Virus record (IMG/VR): IMGVR_UViG_2684623050_000001
Location: 32,001 to 96,000 of that record
DNA: 64,000 nucleotides
Direction: 5' to 3' (one strand)
Origin: a virus
Lineage: Duplodnaviria; Caudoviricetes
Under the pieces are notes generated by a model. The model made no database searches, was not told the DNA's origin, and saw nothing but the letters and a program-made list of their open reading frames with translations. The first letter of the stretch is position 1; each line of letters opens with the position of its first letter. The translations under genes and the position numbers were made by a program. This document shows, in pieces, positions 11,072-62,367 of the stretch.

Positions 11072-11130
11072 GGGTCTGTTCGTCCTTCGGAAGAGCTAGA
11101 TGATAAGTCAGTGCTGACTGATCCACAAGA

Positions 11131-23580: not shown

Positions 23581-23756
23581 TCGCCGGGGATCTGGTGCCT
23601 CTCCCAAGGACCGGCCGGAGATGCTGGTGGACACCCGAGGCATAGCCCAGAGCGCGTGAGTGTGGCTCTAGGACATCACTGTGTCTCAAAAACTACAGTG
23701 ACAAACGTGCAACGTGATGCGCGCGTGCATCAGTGTGTCACGCGCGCATCAGTGTG

Positions 23757-24137
23757 TCATGCTTGCTCGTCAAGCACTAATTCGACGCAATGCATAAGAA
23801 AACGCTTGAAGTCTGCGAAGTTGTCGAAGCGAAAACATTGCTTCTGCAATGTAATGTTTTCGTCAAAGTTAAGATCAGAGCATGCATAATGCGCATCGTT
23901 AAGCGTGCGCACAACGACGTGATGAAAGCTGTCGTGCTTGCGTTCGATGCGCACAGCGTCGATGTAGTGAAACTGCATCACAAGCATTTCAACGCGCTCG
24001 CTGTAAGCGTCAAAATCGTCGCGCGCGCTCATGTCAGTGCGATAGTCTGCGAAGCTGTCGAACGCGCTCATCAGCGCTTGCTCTTGCGCGAGCTTGCGTG
24101 TCTCAGCGTTCATCTCAGCGATATCTTGAAGCGTCAT
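23757..24137 (-). CDS. Gly/Pro/Trp-free hypothetical early protein (126 aa)
   Basis: MTLQDIAEMNAE...; GAGAG-type SD; no G, P or W. Confidence 0.7.
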   Translation of the reverse strand: MTLQDIAEMNAETRKLAQEQALMSAFDSFADYRTDMSARDDFDAYSERVEMLVMQFHYIDAVRIERKHDSFHHVVVRTLNDAHYACSDLNFDENITLQKQCFRFDNFADFKRFLMHCVELVLDEQA

Positions 24138-24197
24138 GACGAAAACTCTCTGTGTTGCTGACAAATGCTTGTCGCATGCGTTCGCATTGCAAGTCAA

Positions 24198-24389
24198 TCA
24201 CTGCTGACTGACTTTTTCGAGCTTTTTGCGCGCGCGATGCTTCGCGACACGCAAGCGCGCATCTTCGTCTCTGTGCGACGCGACAAGCGCTAGATAAGCT
24301 TCGCGTGCGCGTTGCTTCTCTGTGCGAAGCTCGCTCAGACGCGCTTCGATTGACGCGATTTCAGCGCGCAGAGCGTCAGACTTGCACAT
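24198..24389 (-). CDS. Gly/Pro/Trp-free coiled-coil protein (63 aa)
   Basis: LRAEIASIEARLSELRTEKQ heptads; no G, P or W. Confidence 0.55.
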   Translation of the reverse strand: MCKSDALRAEIASIEARLSELRTEKQRAREAYLALVASHRDEDARLRVAKHRARKKLEKVSQQ

Positions 24390-24449
24390 AGCGTTTGCTT
24401 CTCATGAGAGCGTCGCACAGCGCGTTCGCGCGCTCTGAGCTAGTGAGAG

Positions 24450-24478
24450 CGCTAGAGACGCGCGAAGCGTCTCTAGCG
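24450..24478 (-). terminator. GG/CC-free 12-bp hairpin after the 24492 gene
   Basis: CGCTAGAGACGC-GCGAA-GCGTCTCTAGCG; no clear U-tract. Confidence 0.55.
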
Positions 24479-24491
24479 TGCGTCTGAGCGC

Positions 24492-25106
24492 TTAGAGCGC
24501 GACGTTCAGCGCTTTCGCGAGACGCTTCGTCGTCGTCGCGCTCAGATTGAGCTTGTAAGCGACTTTGTTCATGTCGTCGCGCGTCTCTGTCAGCACGTCG
24601 AACATTTGCAGCGCATTGATGCTAGAGCTTGACTGAGTGTCAGCAGTGCTTGCAGCGATGCTGCGAGCGTAGCGCGAAATCAGTTGCTCTTTCGTCGCGT
24701 CGCACTTGAGCGCGTCGCACAGCGACGCTTGAGCGTCAGCGTGCGTCATGCTCTTGTCAGCTTTCGTCAGATTGAGAGCAGTCAAGAAAACGTGCTTGCT
24801 GTAGACGTTCAGCGCTTCAGCTTTGACAGCAGCGCGCGCGACGTTGAACACTTTCTCAGCGCTGTAGACGTTGAAACGCTTGTTGCGACGCTCTTGACGA
24901 TTGATGAAGTCAGCAGCGACGTTCGCAGTGTGCATGACTTCGCAAACGACGTCTGACGCGAAGTCAGCGCGAAGCGACTTGAACGTCTTGAAAATGTTTT
25001 CGTTAGCGTTGTTCTCGCGCTCATAAGCTTCGCGAGCGTCGAAAGCAGAAGTGAGAGCGAGCTTGTAAGCAGTGACAGCTTCGTTCTTCGCGACGTTGTT
25101 GCTCAT
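24492..25106 (-). CDS. Gly/Pro/Trp-free putative wHTH protein (204 aa), paralog of 26363..27271
   Basis: ANVAADFINRQERRNKRFNVYSAEKV vs AAVDTAFVNRTQHDGSRYNVYAIDKV; ASTADTQSSSSINALQMFDVL vs ASTAPTQASSTMQALETLGVV. Confidence 0.85.
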   Translation of the reverse strand: MSNNVAKNEAVTAYKLALTSAFDAREAYERENNANENIFKTFKSLRADFASDVVCEVMHTANVAADFINRQERRNKRFNVYSAEKVFNVARAAVKAEALNVYSKHVFLTALNLTKADKSMTHADAQASLCDALKCDATKEQLISRYARSIAASTADTQSSSSINALQMFDVLTETRDDMNKVAYKLNLSATTTKRLAKALNVAL

Positions 25107-25143
25107 GTCTGTGTCTCTCTGTGTTTGTGTGCTGACAAGAGAC

Positions 25144-25171
25144 AATTTAGTCAGTTCGCATTGAGAGTCAA
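25144..25171 (-). promoter_or_regulatory. Sigma70-like promoter TTGACT-N16-TAAATT for the island gene, overlapped by the 18-bp palindrome at 25168
   Basis: Direct reading of the minus strand. Confidence 0.55.
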
Positions 25172-25666
25172 TCAGCACTGAGTGACTTTTTGCAGAAAAT
25201 AGGAATTTTCTTCTGAGACGCATTCTTGCTCTTGACAGTAGCAAGCGAGCAACACGAGCGTGTGCGCAATCTACATGCGCACAATTCAATGATGCACGAT
25301 GTATTGCGCACGATTTAAGAGCGCTTGATCGAGTGATGCGCGAGCGATCGAGCCCGCGCCGCGCCATGGGTCTCTACCGAAGCCCGCCCCAAGCCGTTCC
25401 TAATTTCCGGAACCGGATGGGTCAACGGCGTCCGCCCATGGCAGCCCGATCCCTCCCATGGCACTCCATGGGGCACCAATGCGAAAATATCGTCTCAGGA
25501 GGCCCGTGGAAGCCCGCGGCAGGCTCCGGAGCTGTCCACGGTGCTCCGGACCCTCCCATGGGGCTCCTGCGCGCCCCTGTGCGATCCCATGGGCTGATCG
25601 AGCGCAACGATATGGGGCGCCCCTCGCGAGACGCCCCTCTGTGTGTCGCGCGTGCTGCGCTACCCC

Positions 25667-25987
25667 TTACGCGAACGCTTCCTCGCGCAGCTCCAGTGCT
25701 TCGGCGCGCTCGCGGGCCTTGCGGTCGATCATGCGCTTGCGCTCGGTGCGGCGTCGCGCGATCTCACGCTCCGCATCCTCGACGTAGAAGCTGTCGAGCT
25801 CTCCCTCGACGAACTCACGGTAGGGCACGCCCAGGGCCCGAGCGACACGCATTTCCATTTTCTCCTCTTGGTCGATGATCTTGCTGAGATGCTGCTTCTG
25901 GACGTTCGGAGCAGCGGCGAGGGCGGCATTCGTGAACTCGATCGCGTCGGCGAGGGCGTTGACGACAGAAGAAACGAGATGGCGCAT
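25667..25987 (-). CDS. Hypothetical protein (106 aa)
   Basis: MRHLVSSVVNAL...; GG-free leader upstream. Confidence 0.55.
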   Translation of the reverse strand: MRHLVSSVVNALADAIEFTNAALAAAPNVQKQHLSKIIDQEEKMEMRVARALGVPYREFVEGELDSFYVEDAEREIARRRTERKRMIDRKARERAEALELREEAFA

Positions 25988-26004
25988 TGGTTGATCTCTT
26001 GTCT

Positions 26005-27314
26005 TGTGAAGCGCTGCGCTTCGTTGCTGACAAGAATGACTATGCACTACGAAATGTATGGATAGAACTGGTGCGTTGTGGTGCAGTATGGGGCGACATG
26101 GATATTAGGATACGTCTCCGGCACGGGACGCGGCCCCACCCCACGGCCTCCCATGGGACCCCGCGGCAGGCCGTGGATCACCGGACCGTGCCCATGGGAA
26201 GCCGAGGAAAGCCGGACCGTGGAGGACCGTGGCCTGCCATGGACCATACCAGGGCCCGCCCCTAGCCGTTCCTAATTCCCAGAACCGGAAGCGCGGGCTC
26301 CCATGGGGCGGACCGAGGCAAGAGAAAGGGGCGCACAGGGCGCCCCAGTCTCGTCTCGGGTCTTAGGCGGCCTTCTGGATCTTCTCCTTGAGCGCCGCGG
26401 TGATCGGGGCGTCGGTCAGGGTGAAGGTGGGGTTGCGGCTCGATCCCTCGCGCTTGACAACCCCGAGGGTCTCCAGGGCCTGCATGGTCGAGGACGCTTG
26501 GGTCGGCGCGGTGCTCGCGGAGACCGTGTGGCGCGTCAGGTGCTTCCGGACCGCGATCTCGACCCCATACTTGTCCGAGGCGCACGCCTTGGCGAGTTCG
26601 AGGCTGAAGGCGTGCCCCGCGGCTTGCAGCGCGAAGATCGACTTGAGGCAGGCGCGGTTGATGGCGTTCTTGACCTCACCCGCGTCGCTGCCGAGGGCGC
26701 GCAGGATGTCGACCACTTTGTCGATGGCGTAGACGTTGTAGCGCGACCCGTCGTGCTGCGTGCGGTTCACGAAGGCGGTGTCGACAGCGGCTGCGATCAG
26801 CACGCGGGCCGGAGCCTTGGAGACGCCCATGCCCTCCCGCGCCTTCTTCAGGGTGCGCTGGATGTTGTGGCCGTCGCCTTTCTTCTGGAGCTCGAACTGG
26901 GCGCGCTCGTCGATCGCGGCGTTGATGGTGCGCTGGGCCATCTCGATGTCCGTGTCGTCGAGCAGGTCCATCAGCTCCCGGAAGCTCGGGCCGGTCGGGG
27001 TAGCGGGCGCTTGGAGCTCGTCGCGCATCTCCTCGGCAGCGATCTCCTGAGCCACGAGATCGAGGACCGCATCGGACGCCTCGGCCTCTTGGACCGGCAG
27101 GTCTGCGAAGGTCTCTTCGAGGCTCAGTTGGATCGCGGCGAGGCGCTCGCTCTCGGCAGCGGCGTCGCGGGTGGCGATCATGGCGTCGTGCTGGAGTTCT
27201 CCGAAGTTGACGTTGATCTTCGGGGCGTCGTTCTTGAAGGACTTGCGGGTGCGAGCGGTCTTAGCGGTCATCTGTCTGTCTTTCGTCTGTGAAGCGCTGC
27301 GCTTCGTTGCTGAC
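26005..27314. repeat. Identical 27-bp leader repeat (26005-26031, 27288-27314) containing a GAAGCG/CGCTTC hairpin
   Basis: TGTGAAGCGCTGCGCTTCGTTGCTGAC in the 5' UTRs of two adjacent genes. Confidence 0.85.
26363..27271 (-). CDS. Putative wHTH protein with acidic N-terminus (302 aa)
   Basis: C-terminal STAPTQASSTMQALETLGVVKREG...TFTL resembles a wHTH recognition helix plus wing; hairpin at ~26327-26346 downstream. Confidence 0.75.
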   Translation of the reverse strand: MTAKTARTRKSFKNDAPKINVNFGELQHDAMIATRDAAAESERLAAIQLSLEETFADLPVQEAEASDAVLDLVAQEIAAEEMRDELQAPATPTGPSFRELMDLLDDTDIEMAQRTINAAIDERAQFELQKKGDGHNIQRTLKKAREGMGVSKAPARVLIAAAVDTAFVNRTQHDGSRYNVYAIDKVVDILRALGSDAGEVKNAINRACLKSIFALQAAGHAFSLELAKACASDKYGVEIAVRKHLTRHTVSASTAPTQASSTMQALETLGVVKREGSSRNPTFTLTDAPITAALKEKIQKAA

Positions 27315-27521
27315 GAAGACTAGAAACGATATTTAGGCTAGGGATGCTACTGGCACGTTATGGAAGCTCTAAGCTTCTGGATACACGCTCGCGTGCTCTA
27401 TATACGTGAGAGCCGATCTCCGGGCGCGCCATGGGAGGCCGAGGAGCCCCTTGGGTCGCCGGTGCCTGCCATGAAATCCCATGGGAGCCCGTGGGTCGCC
27501 GGACGCTTGGAAATCCAAGAG

Positions 27522-27601
27522 CTCCAAGTCCGCGTTCCTGTAAATAGGTATATACAGGTAGATAGTAGGTAATAGGTTTTTACAGGAACGCGGACTTGGA
27601 G
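27522..27601. repeat. Perfect 23-bp inverted repeat around a 34-nt AT-rich TAGGT-repeat core
   Basis: CTCCAAGTCCGCGTTCCTGTAAA / TTTACAGGAACGCGGACTTGGAG. Confidence 0.9.
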
Positions 27602-28329
27602 ATTTCCATGGGATCTCCGGCGACCCGAGGCGTTCCGTGGATCGTTCCAGGGCCCGCCCCTGGCCGTTCCTAAATTCCGGATCAGGAAGACAGACCGCTG
27701 CCGGTGCCCCTCAAGCGGTCCGGACGAGACCTCGGGGCACCGGTCAGCAGCGTCAGCAACAAGCAGGCACAGAGAGAGCCCAGAGGCAGCTGCGCGTCCG
27801 GCGCGCTGCGCTTGCAGTGATAGAGATACAGCAGCGATCGTGGCGAGGCTACCGGATGCGTGTGGGCGTCCAAGGTGTTCGGGGATCGGTGGACGTAGAG
27901 GGAAACGGGCGCCGCGCGGCCGTGTCTATCTGATCCCTCTCCCAGCTATTCCCCACTCCCCGGCTCTCTATGGGCTCACACACGCTGGCGTCTCTCTAGG
28001 GGCTGTCTCTCCCCTCCCCTACGCGCTCCCCACAGACGCTCTCTCGCTCGTGTCTCTCTGATGCTGATGCGCTCTATTCGTTGGATGCGTCGCTCGCTTC
28101 GCTCAGAGCATCACACAGCGCGTTTCGTTCGTTCTGTGTCTCTCTGACGCTCTCACATGCTTCCCGACGCTCTATGAGCTTCTCATGCGATTTGCCCCTA
28201 AGACGCTCTCGATCGGGTCCATGTCTCTCTAGAGCTGATTGATGGTTTTGGGCTGCGAAATCGGGCTGCTCGGGCTCATGTCCCCTGATGAGACATTTTC
28301 CGCAAAATCGCGTTCGCATTGGATTTTGA

Positions 28330-28458
28330 TGGGACATCCATAGGACATCCAGGTGACATCCATGGGACATCGGTGAGACATTCGCGGCCCTCGCCCGATA
28401 GTTCGCATTGAGGTTCGAGGGGACATGCAGGTGACGTCCATGGGACATCCATGAGACA
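28330..28458. repeat. Two clusters of 11-bp tandem repeats (iteron/centromere-like)
   Basis: TGGGACATCCA-type units at 28330, 28341, 28352, 28363, 28374 and 28419, 28430, 28441, 28452. Confidence 0.85.
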
Positions 28459-28561
28459 GGCCTGGCCTCTCCGGACCGTGGCCTGTGTGAGCCTGGACCA
28501 GGCTTCCATGGACCGGGTGCTCTACGAAGAAGGGGCGCCCGTGGTGCGCCCCTGTGTGGTC

Positions 28562-31453: not shown

Positions 31454-32044
31454 CTAGGCGGCGTTCGTGCGGTAGTCTTTGACGACTTCCACGACGACGC
31501 TGGATTCTGGGGCGCTCGCGGCGATCGTGACGGTCGTCAGGCCCCAGGCGGTGCTGTCCATCGACATCCAGCTGTTCTGCTCGGCAGTCTTGTTGGGGCT
31601 GAACTCGCTGTGGACATGCACGGCGTTGTTCGGCTCGGCGAGGAATGCAGCGGCGATACGCTCGGCTTCCTCGGAGATCTGGGCGCGCAGGGTCGGCTCG
31701 GCGCAGGCGGCGTCTCGCATCTGCTCCTCGCAGTCGAAGACGATCTTCATGGACGCACGGAACTGCTCTACGGCTTCGGCAGCGGTCTCGAACACGAGGA
31801 CTGCGGTGATGTCCGGGCCGCAATCGGTGTAGGCGAACAGGGTCTTGCCCTGGCTCGCGGCGATCAGCGCGTGCGAGTGCTTGTCGGTCTCGTATTCGTA
31901 GTGGGTGTCCGGCAGGTCGGCATCGTCTGGCGCTGTGTCGCAGGTCAGGACCGGGCCGTTGTTGCTCTCGATCAGCGTCACGACGACGTGATCGTAGTCG
32001 ATGGTCGAGGCGTCGCTGTGGCTGGTGATGTGTTGGATGGTCAT
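31454..32044 (-). CDS. Acidic hypothetical protein
   Basis: 196 aa, GG-free leader. Confidence 0.6.
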   Translation of the reverse strand: MTIQHITSHSDASTIDYDHVVVTLIESNNGPVLTCDTAPDDADLPDTHYEYETDKHSHALIAASQGKTLFAYTDCGPDITAVLVFETAAEAVEQFRASMKIVFDCEEQMRDAACAEPTLRAQISEEAERIAAAFLAEPNNAVHVHSEFSPNKTAEQNSWMSMDSTAWGLTTVTIAASAPESSVVVEVVKDYRTNAA

Positions 32045-44421: not shown

Positions 44422-44680
44422 GGCCTTCTCCTTGTTGCTCTCCAGTGCGCTCAGTAAGTCAGCGCTGACTGATTATAGCAGTGCGCGCTTGGCGTTTTCA
44501 AAGCGATCGACACAGACCGGACTCAGAGGCGGCGTGGAATGCGCGACGTTGCTCTGTGAGACGCGCGAACGCTTTCGAGCATCGCTGATGCGTCGCGAGC
44601 GAACCGACGCTGTGCGAGCTTCTGAGAGCGTCGCAGATCGCGTCCTAGCGAGAGAGCGAAGTCGCTGTTTCGCGAAACGC

Positions 44681-49774: not shown

Positions 49775-49859
49775 TCATCCTCTCAATGTGCAAACGCTCT
49801 CGCGTCACTCTGTTATAGCGACGCGAGAGCGGCAGTTCAGTCAGTGCTGACTGGTTTCT

Positions 49860-51383
49860 TTAGGCAGCCTTCAGGTGCTTCGAGAGGGCCTTGCGGCACA
49901 TCTTGAGCTCCTTCTCGATCTCCCGCAGCGACTTGCCGGCCTTGTGGAGCTCGGTCGCCTTGAGGAGCTTCTCGGCGTAGGTGAGCACCGTGCTGACCTC
50001 GGCCGGGGCAGGGGCCTTCTGGGCGAACGCCGGCTTGGCGACCTTCTTCGGCTTCGACTTGCGCTTGGGCGCGTTGACGATCTCCTTCACCAGGCTGTTG
50101 GTGATGGCGAAGTCGCCGAACTTCTTGGTGCGCAGCACCAGGCGCCCGGTCTTGCCGTCGTCACGGGTGGCCGCGACCTCGTAGTCGCCGTCGTCCAGCT
50201 TCTTCGAGCCCCTGATCCGCACCCAGTTGCCGGGGATCGCACGATCCCAGGCCGTCTGCGCCTTGGGCTTCTCGGGCACCACCGGCGCCGGGGCAGGGGA
50301 GGGCGCAGCCTCGGTGCCCTTCAGCTCCTCGCCGAGCTTGGCCTTGACCGCCTTGGCGTCGATCTTGGGCCGCTCCTCGATCTTGCGAACCGGGTTGAGC
50401 GCGGCCGGCAGACCAGGAGCGGCGCCGGTCTGAGTGACGGTGAGCGCGGTCTCCTTGTCCTTCACGAAGGAGCCGCCCACGACGACCTCTTCGAGCACAC
50501 CGACGTGATTGCCGGCGACGACGTTGGCGACGATGCCCCGCGCCTCCTTGGCAGTCAGCGCTGACTTATACTCCGAGACAGCCTTGTGAGCGGAGCCGTC
50601 GAGCAGCGCGACCAGGTGGTAGGCCGAGCAGCGCATCTTGCCGCCGTTGTAGTTCTCCGGGATCGCGATGACGTCGGCGGGATCGACCTTCACCAAGAAG
50701 ACGGAATCGCCATACTGGCCGTAGCTCGCCGAGCAGACGTGCAGGCCGGAGCCGCACTGCGCACGGTCGACGCGGATCTTGTCGAGCGGCATCGAGACGC
50801 GCGAGCCGAGACGCTGCATAACCCGGCCGGTGTGATGGTCGGCGAAGGTGTCGGGGCCCTTCTTGTCGAGGAACTTGTAGAGGACGATGCAGCCGTCGTC
50901 GGCGATCGGCAGATCCATCTTCTTCACGAAGGCGAGGAGCTCGTCCGCGGTGTGCTTGTGGTCGAGACGAGCGAAGCGCTCCAGGAACCGGGTGAGGCTG
51001 GTGCCGCCGTTCATCGCGGTGTCCTCGATCGCCTTCTCCAGCGCCGAAGCGTCCTCGATCTTGACGCCGGCAGCGGTCGAGATCGCGAGCTTGGAGACGC
51101 CGTTCTCGACCTTCTCCTCGACCGTGACCGCGCCGCCCGTGACCTCGGCGATGCGCTTGGCGAGGCTGAACTGGTCGAGGTCGATCTCGATGCAGGCGCT
51201 CAGATCACTGCCGGACGCAGCAGCTTCGGCCGTCGCCTTGGCGAGCGGCACGAGCACCGCGTCCAGAATCGCCGCAGTGCGCCAGCTCTCCTGGCCGAAC
51301 ACCTGGCTCTTGCCGTCGGACGTGAAGAGAGTCACGCCGTTCTTGGAGACGATCGCTCCGGAAACGCAGATCTTGTTGCTCAC
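49860..51383 (-). CDS. rIIB: rIIB-like protein
   Basis: DLPIADDGCIVLYK...CGSGLHVCS...VKVDPADVIAIP...KMRCSAY; follows rIIA. Confidence 0.85.
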   Translation of the reverse strand: MSNKICVSGAIVSKNGVTLFTSDGKSQVFGQESWRTAAILDAVLVPLAKATAEAAASGSDLSACIEIDLDQFSLAKRIAEVTGGAVTVEEKVENGVSKLAISTAAGVKIEDASALEKAIEDTAMNGGTSLTRFLERFARLDHKHTADELLAFVKKMDLPIADDGCIVLYKFLDKKGPDTFADHHTGRVMQRLGSRVSMPLDKIRVDRAQCGSGLHVCSASYGQYGDSVFLVKVDPADVIAIPENYNGGKMRCSAYHLVALLDGSAHKAVSEYKSALTAKEARGIVANVVAGNHVGVLEEVVVGGSFVKDKETALTVTQTGAAPGLPAALNPVRKIEERPKIDAKAVKAKLGEELKGTEAAPSPAPAPVVPEKPKAQTAWDRAIPGNWVRIRGSKKLDDGDYEVAATRDDGKTGRLVLRTKKFGDFAITNSLVKEIVNAPKRKSKPKKVAKPAFAQKAPAPAEVSTVLTYAEKLLKATELHKAGKSLREIEKELKMCRKALSKHLKAA

Positions 51384-53757
51384 TTGCTGTTCTCCTTGCG
51401 GGAAATGTAACGCTGACCCAACTGTTCAGCGAAATCGAGGAAGTCTTCGCGCTGCGTCTGGGTCATCATGAGGAACTTCGACTTGTCGAAGACTTCCAGC
51501 AATCCCAGGTGCTCGACGCGGGTCTGAAGAGGCTCCCGTCCTTGAAGCCGGTGGCCTCAAGCTCGCAGACGATGTTGCGGTATTCCTCAACGAGCTTGAG
51601 GATCTCGGTGGACTCGGACTTGTCGAGATGGTCCGAGGAAGCCCAGCGCTGATGCAGGACGGTCTTCGCCATCAGCCACCAGGTCCAGGCGTCGTCGCGA
51701 TCCGCGTCGTCGGTGTAGGGCTCACGCACAGCGGCGTGAGCGAAGCGACGCGAATGGGCGATCATCATGCCGGCGAGCTCCGAACCCATCTTGCTCGGGT
51801 TCGAGGCGAGCAGCGCCAGCTTCACGTAGAGGGCCTCGTAGGGCTTGTTCAGCGCGAGCCGGGCGCGGAGCTTCTCCAGGACCAGCGTTTCCAGACGCGG
51901 GATGTTCTGGCCCTGCAAAAAGTCCATGTCGGACCGCTTCCAAATCATTGCTACCTCGCCGATGTGCTTCTTGATGAGATCCAATACCAAATGCGCGTTG
52001 GGCGGCTGTCGGGTCAGGTAAAACGCGGGCTTGTAGTCGACAGATGTTGCCTTCACGCCGAAGTAGGCGGCCGGCATGAAGATGCGGGGAGAGACGTGGC
52101 ACTCGCGGGTCGCGTAGAGCGTGATATCGTCCTTCGAGTAGGTCTCGCGGTCGCGATACTGGTCCCACGAAAGCTTGATGAAGCGAGGCGGGCAGGGCGG
52201 TCCGAACTGCTCCTTCGGCTTCTCGGCCTCGGGAATCACCTTCACAGCCGGCTTGAGGTCGATGACCTCGATGCCGAGCTTCTTCCCCTGCTCCAGAATG
52301 ACCTTGCGCTGGCTCTCCTTGAGCTTGCCGATCAGGATGTAGCCGCGCTCGGCCTTCCTCGCCTCGATCTTGTTCTGGGCGAGGAAGATGCGGGGCTTCC
52401 GCCAGCGGCCGTGAAAGCTGTAGGTGCGGTCCCGGTCGGGCTTGTTGGCCGCAATGGGCTTCTCGCGCTGCGTCACCTTGATGTGCAGGAGCTTCAGCAC
52501 GTCGGCCTTGGTCGCGAGCCGCGCCACCGAGCGCTTGGCGTATTCGGTGGCGTCCCGCTCGAACGAGAAGCCCCGGCCGTGCTTGTGGCTCGCGATCTGC
52601 CGCAGGCCCCTCCGGCGATGCTTCATCGTGCCGAGGAAGATCTTCGCCTGCTCGCGCTCGGAGAAGCCGCGATTCGACATCACGTAGAGGGCGTAGCCGC
52701 GCGCGATCGCCTCGATGCCGGTGAGGAGCTTCTCGTTCTCGTTCTGCGCCTCGATATAGACCTTCTCGGCCGGCAGCTTGTTGCGCTTGGCGTCCTTGTA
52801 GGCCTCCTTCAGGAAGCCCTTCAGGTAGTGGTTCACCCGACCCTGGCAGCGGCCGACGACGCCTGCCAGCACCTTCTTGAGCGTGCCGACCGTCTGATCG
52901 TTGTAGGACAACGCCTCGCGCGAGGGTGTGACCGAGATCGAGGACGGCGGGGCGTAGATGATGAAGGAGCGGTTGTTGAAGGTCATATCGCGCAGCCGCG
53001 AGATGTAGGCTTGAAGCTCCTCGTGCGTGTCCAGCGGGTAGAGAACGTTGGCGTAGAGGACCTGGACCTTCGCGATGTTGCGGCGCGACAGGTAGCCGAG
53101 GCCGAAGCCGTTGCGCTTGAGCTCCGTGTAGTCGGGCGCGCTGAGACGCTCGCCGTTGAGGTCGACGACCATGCCGCCTTCCTGAACGACCTGCTTGAGC
53201 GCGCTCTCGATCTTGTCGCGCATGCCGACGGCCAGCGGCACCGAGACCGTCAGGCCGGTCCCATCGGTGCGCGACTTCATCATGACCTTGGCGCCGGGCG
53301 TGCCGTTCGTGGTCGGGTCGCCGACGTGCATCGCGTAGAGGGTCGAGATGCCCTGGTGACGCGAGATCACGGTGAAGTGGTCGGAGATCGCGAACGGGGC
53401 CTTGGAGCCGAGGCCGAAGCCGCCCGTCTGGTTGTCCTGGCCCTCCTTCGTCGAGGCGAAGAGGGTGCAGTAGATGTCGGCGATGCGGTCGTCGGCGATG
53501 CCGGGGCCCTGGTCCTCGACGATCAGCTCGTCGTCCGAGAGCGTCACCTTGACCGGCTCGCTCTCCTTGCCGACCATCGCGTGCGCGTCGATGGCGTTGC
53601 AGACGATCTCTCGGACCGCGGCACGCTCCTTGTCGCGGTAGAGGCTGTCGGACATGATCTTGAAGGCCGCAGCAGACGCCTTCACCTGGAAGGCGTGCGT
53701 CTTGCCGCCTCCGATGATGACGTGGCTGTCCGGCTCAGTGACGTGGGTCACTTGCAT
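51380..53757 (-). CDS. rIIA: rIIA-like GHKL ATPase protein (apparent 1-nt frameshift near 51536)
   Basis: SLYRDK..AVREIVCNAIDAH, DQGPGI, ASTK, GGFGLGSKAPF; C-terminus continues in the -1 frame to a TGA overlapping the rIIB start. Confidence 0.88.
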
Positions 53758-53862
53758 GGGCGCGTCTCTCGCTCTCTGTGTGTGCGCTGCGCGTCTCAGT
53801 CAGCGCTGACTGACTTGTTATAGCGACAAAATCGCGGCGTTTCAGTCAGCGCTGAGTGATTT

Positions 53863-57548: not shown

Positions 57549-57720
57549 GTTGATGTCCTCTATGTGCGGGAAGGGGAGGAGCGTTGGGCCGAGGGCGCAC
57601 CTGCAAACCCTCGCTCCTCCCCGGTGCCTGTTCCCAGGCAGCGCTGCGTGTCTCAGTCAGCGCTGACTGATTTGTTATAGCGAGCGAGACGCGGCGTTTC
57701 GCTCGAAAAAGTGCGGAAGC

Positions 57721-62328: not shown

Positions 62329-62367
62329 CTCCGTTCCTCAGTCAGTGCTGACTTACTAGATATAGCG

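Follow-up and report, generated by a model that had tools for sequence, protein, structure and literature searches.

A conserved GG/CC-free island around a putative duplicated regulator gene in a predicted phage-plasmid

The island and its genes

The 64,000-nt stretch of viral DNA analysed here (positions 32,001 to 96,000 of the IMG/VR record IMGVR_UViG_2684623050_000001, Duplodnaviria, Caudoviricetes; called the window below, and the source of all coordinates unless stated otherwise) belongs to replicon C2, a 117,697-bp contig apart from the 5.4 Mb chromosome (68.5% G+C) in a genome of 5.6 Mb and four contigs. Positions 23673–25352, read on the minus strand, form a 1680-bp island that contains a single GG (25202–25203) and no CC dinucleotide, is flanked by GG/CC at 23671–23672 and 25353–25354, and has a G+C content of ~54% as compared to 65% for the replicon. 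Between 23673 and 25201 neither GG nor CC occurs on either strand, in whatever frame and in non-coding DNA as well as in genes, and the next GG/CC after 25202 is at 25353. The longest run free of both words is 1531 bp long, against a maximum of 115 bp elsewhere in all four contigs (5.6 Mb); the ~19,400 GG/CC sites of C2 have a mean spacing of 6.1 bp, and the longest gap expected is ~60 bp.

Three minus-strand open reading frames (ORFs), A, B and C, lie in the island, and none of them encodes a glycine, proline or tryptophan (G, P or W) residue. Gene A (24492–25106) encodes 204 amino acids with a pI of 9.1 and matches residues 106–302 of the 302-amino-acid product of a nearby gene, the normal paralog (26363–27271, minus strand), without the latter's N-terminal ~105 residues. 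Gene B (24198–24389) would encode a basic (pI 10.1), coiled-coil-like protein of 63 amino acids and is probably a genuine gene; small basic ORFs are found 3′ of A in several related islands. Gene C (23757–24137) encodes an acidic protein (pI 4.8) of 126 amino acids if translated from its ATG, or 146 from a TTG at 24197; a search for its homologs returned one match, 98% identical and encoded on a 2250-nt contig, and a homolog with 31% identity lies inside the island of locus L016. The paralog has 152 GG/CC in its 909 bp and a third-codon-position G+C fraction (GC3) of 0.91, and its G+P+W content is within its family's 5–13% range.

Gly, Pro and Trp are missing from the island's proteins because GGN, CCN and TGG codons are impossible without GG or CC. 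Every spurious ORF in the island likewise lacks these three residues, and ~400 bp of non-coding DNA and all of the codon junctions are under the same ban. The 17-amino-acid alphabet of A is thus a by-product of a GG/CC ban on DNA or RNA that extends as well to untranslated regions (UTRs), terminators, the junctions between codons and a further two genes. A preliminary description of this DNA, made from its letters and ORFs, had called A a natural protein rebuilt from 17 amino acids; that a natural 17-amino-acid family exists stands, but its cause is the ban on the nucleic acid and not a recoding of the protein.

The island's codons have a GC3 of 0.65, with G- or C-ending codons favoured wherever they are permitted and with GCC, ACC, TCC, CGG and AGG all at zero. 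This host-like codon bias under the ban argues that the island evolved in place, and import of foreign AT-rich DNA was rejected because the host-like preference persists. In 12 pooled islands (12.3 kb) the observed/expected ratio of GG/CC is 0.03 and that of GC and CG is 1.8, and among the other di-, tri- and tetranucleotides GTAC alone stands out as under-represented, a word that is avoided throughout the replicon as well. Outside the island the GG/CC odds ratio is 0.78 in C2 and 0.82 in the chromosome. Two other compositional candidates were set aside: purine/pyrimidine alternation or Z-DNA, since AA/TT, AG/CT and GA/TC are not depleted, and a strand-specific ban, since no signal exceeds the normal bias of CC over GG. 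As a separate observation, CTAG is avoided 4–5-fold in C2 and the chromosome (ratios 0.23–0.29) and is at expectation (0.99) within the pooled islands, probably as a by-product of forced GCT and AGC codons.

Gene A and its normal paralog

BLASTP aligns A residues 18–172 with paralog residues 116–272 (E 5e-13, 27% identity over 159 residues), and hhalign comparison of profiles built from 39 sequences each extends the match to 196 columns, A 8–204 on paralog 106–302 (probability 99.9%, E 1.8e-33). The preliminary description had aligned A with the C-terminal part of its 302-amino-acid neighbour and had proposed a duplicated gene with one diverged copy, and the BLASTP and profile comparisons, together with the tree described below, bear it out: judged by sequence, A is a duplicated and diverged copy of the neighbouring gene. 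Predicted structures agree with this, as that description had asked them to be compared. The AF2 models, built from 39-sequence alignments, are confident (A, pLDDT 92.3; paralog, 87.0), and the 12 predicted secondary-structure elements of A correspond one to one, in the same order, to the last 12 of the paralog, both ending in a helix, a beta-hairpin and a helix.

The C-termini had also been thought to look like winged helices. VIA-align places A residues ~90–203 on MarR, RosR, histone H1 and PadR chains with Z scores of 7–8.3 (the tool's “middling” range) and root-mean-square deviations of 1.9–3.2 Å over 72–84 residues, and Foldseek agrees weakly with a winged helix (probability ~0.9, E ~0.1). 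The models therefore point to a winged-helix-like C-terminus for A, an assignment at the level of fold. As in the MarR, PadR and ArsR regulators, a helix, Ser/Thr/Gln-rich in A (TxxTQSSSSINALQ), is followed by a beta-hairpin; A differs from them in having no Pfam or PHROG match and an N-terminal helical half without a clear counterpart, and DNA binding by A is a prediction from the models. Pfam at E ≤ 0.1 gave no family for A or the paralog, PHROGs gave none either, and Pfam, PHROGs and the ESM Atlas assigned no family or function to A, B, C or the paralog.

The sister family shows what replaced the missing residues. In 11 alignment columns the paralog family is at least 60% G, P or W (the residue being G or P in every case), and at these columns the A family has P>A/D/S/E/N and G>N/S/D/E/A/R. 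The P>D, G>D and G>N replacements noticed at first sight are present at A positions 156, 170 and 75, respectively, and recur family-wide.

Replicon type and conservation of the ban

Going by its genes, C2 is an SSU5/RHEph10-type phage-plasmid, since it carries a terminase and structural module and plasmid maintenance genes on a separate replicon of the ~100–120 kb class. Its TerL is 66% identical to that of Rhizobium phage RHEph10 and 58% identical to that of Salmonella phage SSU5, and by tblastn most of its ORFs have matches in RHEph10 and in a Methylobacterium plasmid; the closest named relative is a Methylobacterium oryzae plasmid. The gene content includes tail and head genes, ParA (with Pfam matches) accompanied by an RHH protein, a RepC-like initiator, DnaE polymerase, RecA, a gp32-like single-stranded DNA-binding protein, a class II ribonucleotide reductase and an rIIA-like protein. 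C2:1173–2360 is 67% identical to a region annotated repC in NZ_CP090351, and excerpts of PMC5537653 describe a RepC-like system for pLM21S1 and RHEph10. Nucleotide metabolism is represented by ThyX-like, dUTPase/dCTP-deaminase-like and 5′-nucleotidase genes in addition to the reductase and a DnaE fused to a uracil-DNA-glycosylase (UDG)-like domain. The last, a DnaE-type polymerase gene at L011 9836–13240 (C2:106836–110240), has this domain at its C-terminus (Pfam UDG, E 3.5e-9, residues 979–1081), and the RHEph10 annotation records the same domain on its DnaE-type polymerase.

The lack of G, P and W is a property of the A family as a whole. Among 43 A-family representatives (42–100% identity) G+P+W amounts to 0–3.1% and is zero in 25, while in the paralog family it is 5.1–12.7% (in the 120 listed of 237 hits). 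An exhaustive profile search found 394 relatives, and the best 150 of these included 124 new representatives at the 50% identity level, whose G+P+W counts in the C-terminal ≤200 residues are bimodal: 0–9 in at least 69 (37 with zero) and 12–22 in 55. A quick maximum-likelihood IQ-TREE analysis of all 43 A rows together with every third of the 120 listed paralogs (40 in total, C-terminal 210 residues) separated A from the paralogs with 100% SH-aLRT support and placed a relaxed clade (8 rows, 100%) within A.

In the DNA itself, A lies within islands of 0.63–2.0 kb both in RHEph10 and in related viral contigs, with 0–6 GG/CC inside the A gene in 10 of 13 loci. In RHEph10, a cultured Rhizobium phage, the island at 98,833–100,055 is the only one of its kind in the genome; the 204-amino-acid A homolog there was found by profile only (hhalign E 4e-5), and tblastn of A against the phage collection gave no match. 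An A-family search of the GTDB representative genomes returned one locus. In the relaxed orthologs (M. oryzae plasmid and a related contig) the gene contains 64–71 GG/CC, and yet only 3 of 202 residues are G/P/W, from which it follows that the constraint on DNA or RNA can disappear without the protein ceasing to be G/P/W-poor. The family-wide conservation and the nested position of the relaxed clade argue, as far as such comparisons go, that the ban is ancestral, acts on the nucleic acid and can be lost. Selection for an unstructured mRNA was also considered and rejected: the strict A genes have predicted folding energies of −0.32 to −0.37 kcal/mol per nt, and the relaxed orthologs −0.32.

The RHEph10 island (L008 10525–11747; NC_034248.1 98,833–100,055) carries the GenBank coding sequences gp097 and gp098 on its plus strand, and the A homolog is on the opposite strand; the gp097/gp098 annotation is probably wrong.

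Extent of the ban relative to the predicted transcript

A sigma-70-type promoter for A is predicted by consensus match at 25144–25171 on the minus strand (TTGACT, 16-nt spacer, TAAATT). It is followed by a leader, also on the minus strand, that starts with GTCAGCA at 25136 and continues into a purine-rich, GG-free ribosome-binding region, ACAGAGAGA. A hairpin with 11-bp arms and a GCGAA loop, built of GC/CG steps only, lies 3′ of the A stop codon at 24451–24477 (minus strand), and in relatives the minimal islands finish with equivalent hairpins. The putative terminator is a short hairpin, CACTGT … ACAGTG (23674–23702, minus strand), at the 3′ edge of the present island, and the first GG comes directly after it. 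Upstream of C, and overlapping the end of B, is a second copy of the A promoter region (24180–24217, minus strand), 84% identical to the first (repeat family D9: 24180–24217 and 25154–25191).

The ban fits the limits of this predicted unit rather closely. The nearest upstream GG/CC is a median of 56 bp from the A start codon, and in 7 of 13 loci the distance is 46–56 bp, at the predicted −10 or transcription start site (TSS); in five lineages (L016, L020, L021, L022 and L023, whose sequences were inspected by eye) it falls within the predicted −35 or the spacer. The nearest downstream GG/CC is a median of 103 bp past the A stop codon, against a background spacing of 5–9 bp, and in L017, L020, L027 and the window (23674–23702) the ban ends directly after one or two hairpins built of GC and CG. 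The ban thus covers the full predicted transcript including UTRs and terminator, as a word-free mRNA should. Since its limits are approximately those from −10/TSS to terminator, the protected object appears to be a transcription unit, with promoters and terminators that are predicted ones.

Flanking elements

A 65-nt upstream element (25355–25419) begins exactly at the island's end, and further copies (repeat family D2) are found at 26227–26291, 5′ of an ORF at 25667–26047, and at 27625–27689, 5′ of the paralog. The paralog has a 27-nt leader (27288–27314, minus strand) that is identical to 26005–26031 and comprises GTCAGCA and a GAAGCGC/GCGCTTC hairpin. This common leader places the paralog and ORF 25667–26047 in the same class of predicted promoter and leader as A. 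The leaders of A, C, the paralog and ORF 25667–26047 all have purine-rich ACAGAGAGA-type sequences in place of a GGAGG Shine-Dalgarno sequence, and GTCAGCA half-sites open all four.

The intergenic regions at 25353–25640, 26078–26366 and 27360–27700 contain arrays of CC-N2-GG boxes (CCATGG, CCGTGG, CCGCGG, CCGAGG) at ~10–11 bp spacing, and each array holds a 65-nt element 5′ of a transcription unit. Candidate proteins to bind these boxes are the adjacent ParA/RHH pair, which ends 92 bp off one island edge, and the winged-helix proteins. An operator-like palindrome, AGTCAG-NN-CTGACT, gave 41 matches with ≤2 mismatches where 0.43 are expected; some 27 sites are in the window (for example 11106–11119, 44457–44470, 49839–49852, 53798–53811, 57655–57668 and 62340–62353), and they often come directly after a TATAAC-like −10, at the start of a leader. 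This is probably the 18-bp palindrome of the preliminary description. The AGTCAGCGCTGACT palindromes and the CC..GG box arrays are putative binding sites of A or its paralog. Two blocks of 11-bp tandem repeats (GGGACATCCAT-like) at 28301–28470, with 7 copies in register (family D1), look like a centromere or iteron array. The terminase genes lie ~11–12 kb from the island, which is thus internal.

Interpretation

We have very little doubt that the ban is selective, is exerted at the nucleotide level and extends over a whole unit around the duplicated regulator copy. With the same confidence we hold that the early-region winged-helix regulator of an SSU5/RHEph10-kind phage-plasmid was duplicated and that one copy, minus its N-terminal ~105 residues, has since evolved without the GG:CC dinucleotide. 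The ban bears on the nucleic acid and not on the protein, spanning leader, coding frames, codon junctions, terminator hairpins and, here, two downstream genes, and the predicted fold has been retained through P>A/D/S and G>N/D/S/E substitutions. In the explanation that we favour, which goes further and is much less certain, the unit would be free of GG and CC so that its message escapes an activity keyed to these words that disables ordinary G+C-rich messages; the target so protected would be RNA, or the DNA strands melted for its synthesis. The likeliest agent would be an endoribonuclease, belonging either to an abortive-infection or toxin system of the host or to the phage's own shut-off, and A (a version of the regulator that would only bind DNA), B and C would still be produced when other transcripts are cut.

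An RNA-level nuclease is favoured because the limits of the ban fit the transcript, but a message made proof against a nuclease keyed to GG/CC is a tentative proposal that we expect, on balance, not to hold. The combined explanation, unit-wide ban together with word-free message, we regard as somewhat doubtful. Stated more broadly, that the island is a natural “target-free expression cassette” in which a regulator, sometimes with neighbours, has been rewritten without a 2-nt word against a GG/CC-keyed nuclease or blocker, acting on RNA or on transcribed DNA and coming from the host or from the element, the idea seems to us almost evenly poised between right and wrong.

Several points weigh against an RNA-level agent. 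No GG/CC-specific RNase was recognised among the ORFs scanned (of ~129 called, 60 were compared with Pfam, 10 with PHROGs and 10 neighbouring unknown ORFs with PADLOC), and we know of no GG- or CC-specific RNase. Such an agent would need two words per strand and a reader of duplex DNA only one, which makes DNA-level models more economical. The residual words on the sense strand of leaky islands are 14 GG and 49 CC, and normal genes too have 2–3 times more CC than GG. The ban reaches 100–450 bp 5′ of the start codon in the window, L024, L025 and L008, which fits only if there are more promoters or small genes in that DNA, and the transcript ends are predictions throughout. The only RNA data point neither way: in metatranscriptome run X5 one 2250-nt contig spans the island of a relative, covering 23625–25193 in pieces with 36 + 162 extra letters at its ends, and the neighbours are present at similar depth in other contigs.

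Three ORFs are common to C2 and RHEph10 and missing in the relaxed M. oryzae plasmid: the rIIA-like one and two of 116 and 93 amino acids; with n = 3 elements, two strict and one relaxed, this is a lead. The rIIA-like ORF (763 amino acids, GHKL ATPase; region 49860–53757) matches RHEph10 gp161 but nothing in the M. oryzae plasmid, and no other larger gene tracks the strict ban among the three elements. A 507-amino-acid ORF adjoins it in the rIIB position and matched neither RHEph10 nor the M. oryzae plasmid.

Of the other explanations, proofing at the DNA level is in our judgement unlikely, although it comes with real attractions. A cassette without the GG:CC step would escape a CRISPR effector that depends on a protospacer-adjacent motif (PAM; CC for type I-F, NGG-like for Cas9), or another GG-keyed DNA nuclease or binder, and would shield an early counter-defence or regulator operon that the element could not survive having silenced. 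A single duplex word accounts for the loss of both GG and CC, C2 clearly evolves by word avoidance (below), and because ~19,400 GG/CC sites could not be purged genome-wide, only a critical unit could be protected. The A-B-C layout, a winged helix-turn-helix gene with small acidic and basic ORFs, is loosely like what we take to be the organisation of acr-aca operons. Genome-wide PAM depletion against type I-F systems has been published for Pseudomonas aeruginosa phages (excerpts of PMC12174588). However, C2 has no genome-wide depletion of GG/CC; the host has neither Cas1 nor a CRISPR array; and Csy3, which marks type I-F systems, occurred in 4 of 401 genomes from the host order and in none of 12 from the host family, with Cas1 present in 112 of the 401. 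Cas9_REC was found in 1 of the 401, by a search that was silent on its control set also and is probably insensitive. GG/CC is moreover tolerated in the −35 and spacer, from which a protospacer would still reach into the unit, and a cut elsewhere in the 118 kb would kill the element anyway. CRISPR with a CC/GG PAM is an unlikely agent, a judgement that the counts support for type I-F.

The preliminary description had proposed that A was rebuilt so it can be expressed from modified DNA. In the form considered here, a bulky modification at GG/CC in virion or replicating DNA would leave only a site-free unit open to the unmodified host RNA polymerase. The boundaries of the ban (−10/TSS to terminator, with GG/CC allowed in −35 and spacer) are as compatible with a block of elongation as with an RNA target, and the nucleotide-metabolism genes of C2 listed above would suit such a scheme. 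Excerpts of PMC7544227 report a precedent in phage CAjan, sequence-specific insertion of 7-deazaguanine at short motifs. Nevertheless, although the island boundaries are as this idea predicts, the claim found no support in a search for the enzymes: C2 has no match to TGT/DpdA, C5-methyltransferase, N4/N6-methyltransferase or Dam (PF01702, PF00145, PF01555, PF02086), all hits to these being chromosomal, and no DNA-modifying enzyme was found among the 60 C2 ORFs scanned with Pfam. The remaining early and late genes have a normal GG/CC density and yet need to be transcribed, and the element also replicates in the host as a plasmid. We therefore consider modified DNA a poor prospect.

More improbable still is that the island is a hole in a protein coat, spared by a silencer or roadblock protein that would bind degenerate CC..GG boxes and spread over G+C-rich DNA; the CCATGG/CCGTGG/CCGCGG arrays may in such a case be sites of the adjacent ParA/RHH partition system. 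Box arrays do flank the island and the neighbouring units (families D3, D4 and D12; inverted repeats I2–I4), one array with its 65-nt element stops exactly where the island begins, and the ParA and RHH genes are 92 bp from the other edge. The paralog and ORF 25667–26047, however, lie between the same arrays at full GG/CC density, and the promoter, which should matter most, is where GG/CC is tolerated in 5 lineages.

A mutational origin deserves very little credence. By it a context-specific process, such as a CC-specific cytosine deaminase acting on the single-stranded DNA of a highly transcribed unit, would erode GG/CC while purifying selection keeps the proteins working, which would account for the fall in G+C from 65% to 54%, for G>D and G>N as changes of the G>A type, and for an extent equal to that of the transcription unit. 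But the edges are sharp within a few bp, GC and CG are 1.8-fold enriched rather than eroded, P>A, P>D and G>R do not correspond to mutations of the C>T or G>A type, there is no surplus loss of CC on the non-template strand, and several lineages, down to ~42% identical in protein, have a count of zero over 1.5 kb.

Selection against Gly, Pro and Trp at the protein level (for example, through tRNA depletion by an anticodon nuclease or for protease resistance), with the DNA pattern secondary, we dismiss almost entirely: the relaxed orthologs do keep only 3 G/P/W of 202 residues despite 64–71 GG/CC, but the ban spans ~400 bp of non-coding DNA, codon junctions and Ala, Thr, Ser and Arg codons (GCC, ACC, TCC, CGG and AGG all 0), which already contradicts the idea, it overshoots the ORF by a median of 56 bp upstream and 103 bp downstream, and the relaxed clade is nested and derived, its 3 G/P/W gains appearing to be close to a rough estimate of neutral re-acquisition.

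Relation to known word-avoidance systems

C2 itself shows classic restriction-site avoidance, in which a short word is selected out so that a sequence-keyed enemy has no target. GTAC is absent where 184 are expected, and it is likewise absent from RHEph10 (0/119; NC_034248.1) and from the M. oryzae plasmid (0/172; NZ_CP090351.1), with a ratio of 0.66 in the chromosome. Observed/expected counts in C2 of other words are CTCGAG 0/145, ATCGAT 1/52, CACGTG 0/21, GTGCAC 0/15, TTCGAA 0/31, TGATCA 1/35, ACGCGT 2/29, CCCGGG 2/38, GGATCC 1/32, TGGCCA 2/27, CACCTC 3/72 and CCCCC 5/83; several of the purged words are lineage-specific, and GGCC and CCGG are at expectation. Ordinary restriction is met on C2 by this genome-wide purge and not by the island. 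The island resembles such avoidance in kind, but its word is 2 nt long, it occupies one transcription unit of 0.63–2.0 kb, and its strictness costs the encoded proteins three amino acids. Classical restriction-site avoidance concerns words of 4–8 bp throughout a genome, whereas the GG/CC depletion is within 23673–25352 only. General restriction avoidance was accordingly rejected as its cause, as the islands hold GCGC, CGCG, TCGA, GATC and CATG at expectation and C2 purges its restriction words genome-wide.

Small early units freed of targets so that their products act before or despite host attack have well-known examples in the first-step-transfer DNA of T5, which is without EcoRI sites, and T7 gene 0.3/Ocr, early-entering, site-poor regions with counter-defence functions. 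The island is like these in being a small target-free unit of putatively early function, and it differs in that theirs are leading DNA ends that lack specific 6-bp sites, while the island is internal. We know of no two-step entry for SSU5-like phages.

The nearest parallel for an entire transcript free of a word, UTRs included, as in the island's boundaries, is an engineered one. ACA-less mRNAs were reportedly first made in combination with the RNase MazF. In the resulting “single protein production”, as outlined in excerpts of PMC9102682 and PMC5408214, an ACA-less mRNA stays translatable while other mRNAs are cut. That system is man-made, with a 3-nt word and a known RNase; the island is natural, with two complementary 2-nt words. 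The depletion of type I-F PAMs shares with the island the same CC/GG word and escape from recognition as its purpose, but according to the same excerpts of PMC12174588 it is genome-wide and statistical, and the ban on C2 is local and near-absolute, in a host order where type I-F is as scarce as given above (4/401).

Significance and related minor observations

There is thus precedent for word avoidance, for PAM depletion and for engineered mRNAs that lack a word. In the literature searched (supplementary files being outside the search) we found no published GG/CC-free genes or G/P/W-free phage proteins, and as far as that search shows, a conserved and near-absolute dinucleotide ban limited to one operon is new, as is the 17-letter protein family that results. 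One replicon displays word avoidance on two scales, that of the whole genome for 4–6-mers and that of a single operon for a 2-mer.

So absolute, conserved and local a ban implies a strong GG/CC-reading activity outside the systems tested, and the island is a handle for finding it by means of natural strict and relaxed alleles. If the broader idea of a target-free expression cassette is true, there should be an undescribed activity, in defence or shut-off, that is specific for a dinucleotide, and the cassettes would supply a ready-made, evolution-tested family of well-folded proteins with a 17-amino-acid alphabet. The A family is also a natural reduced-alphabet experiment whose normal sister family shows the replacements of structural Gly (by N, D, S or E) and Pro (by A, D or S). 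For annotation, it is a warning that host-trained gene finders fail in such DNA, the RHEph10 island having been annotated on the opposite strand.

A possible weak form of the same phenomenon was seen in enterobacterial SSU5-like phages. In 3 of 3, a syntenic pair of genes of 216 and ~67 amino acids beside a repressor-like gene has 1.4–2.9-fold fewer GG/CC than the locus average, in raw counts without normalisation for local G+C (L014 42371–43275, SSU5_119/120; L035 and L036 3001–3930), and a GG/CC-free gap of 154 bp lies over SSU5_119. Comparison of the pair with A by hhalign gave E 0.11 and BLASTP gave no alignment with B; these loci may be taken as a hint.

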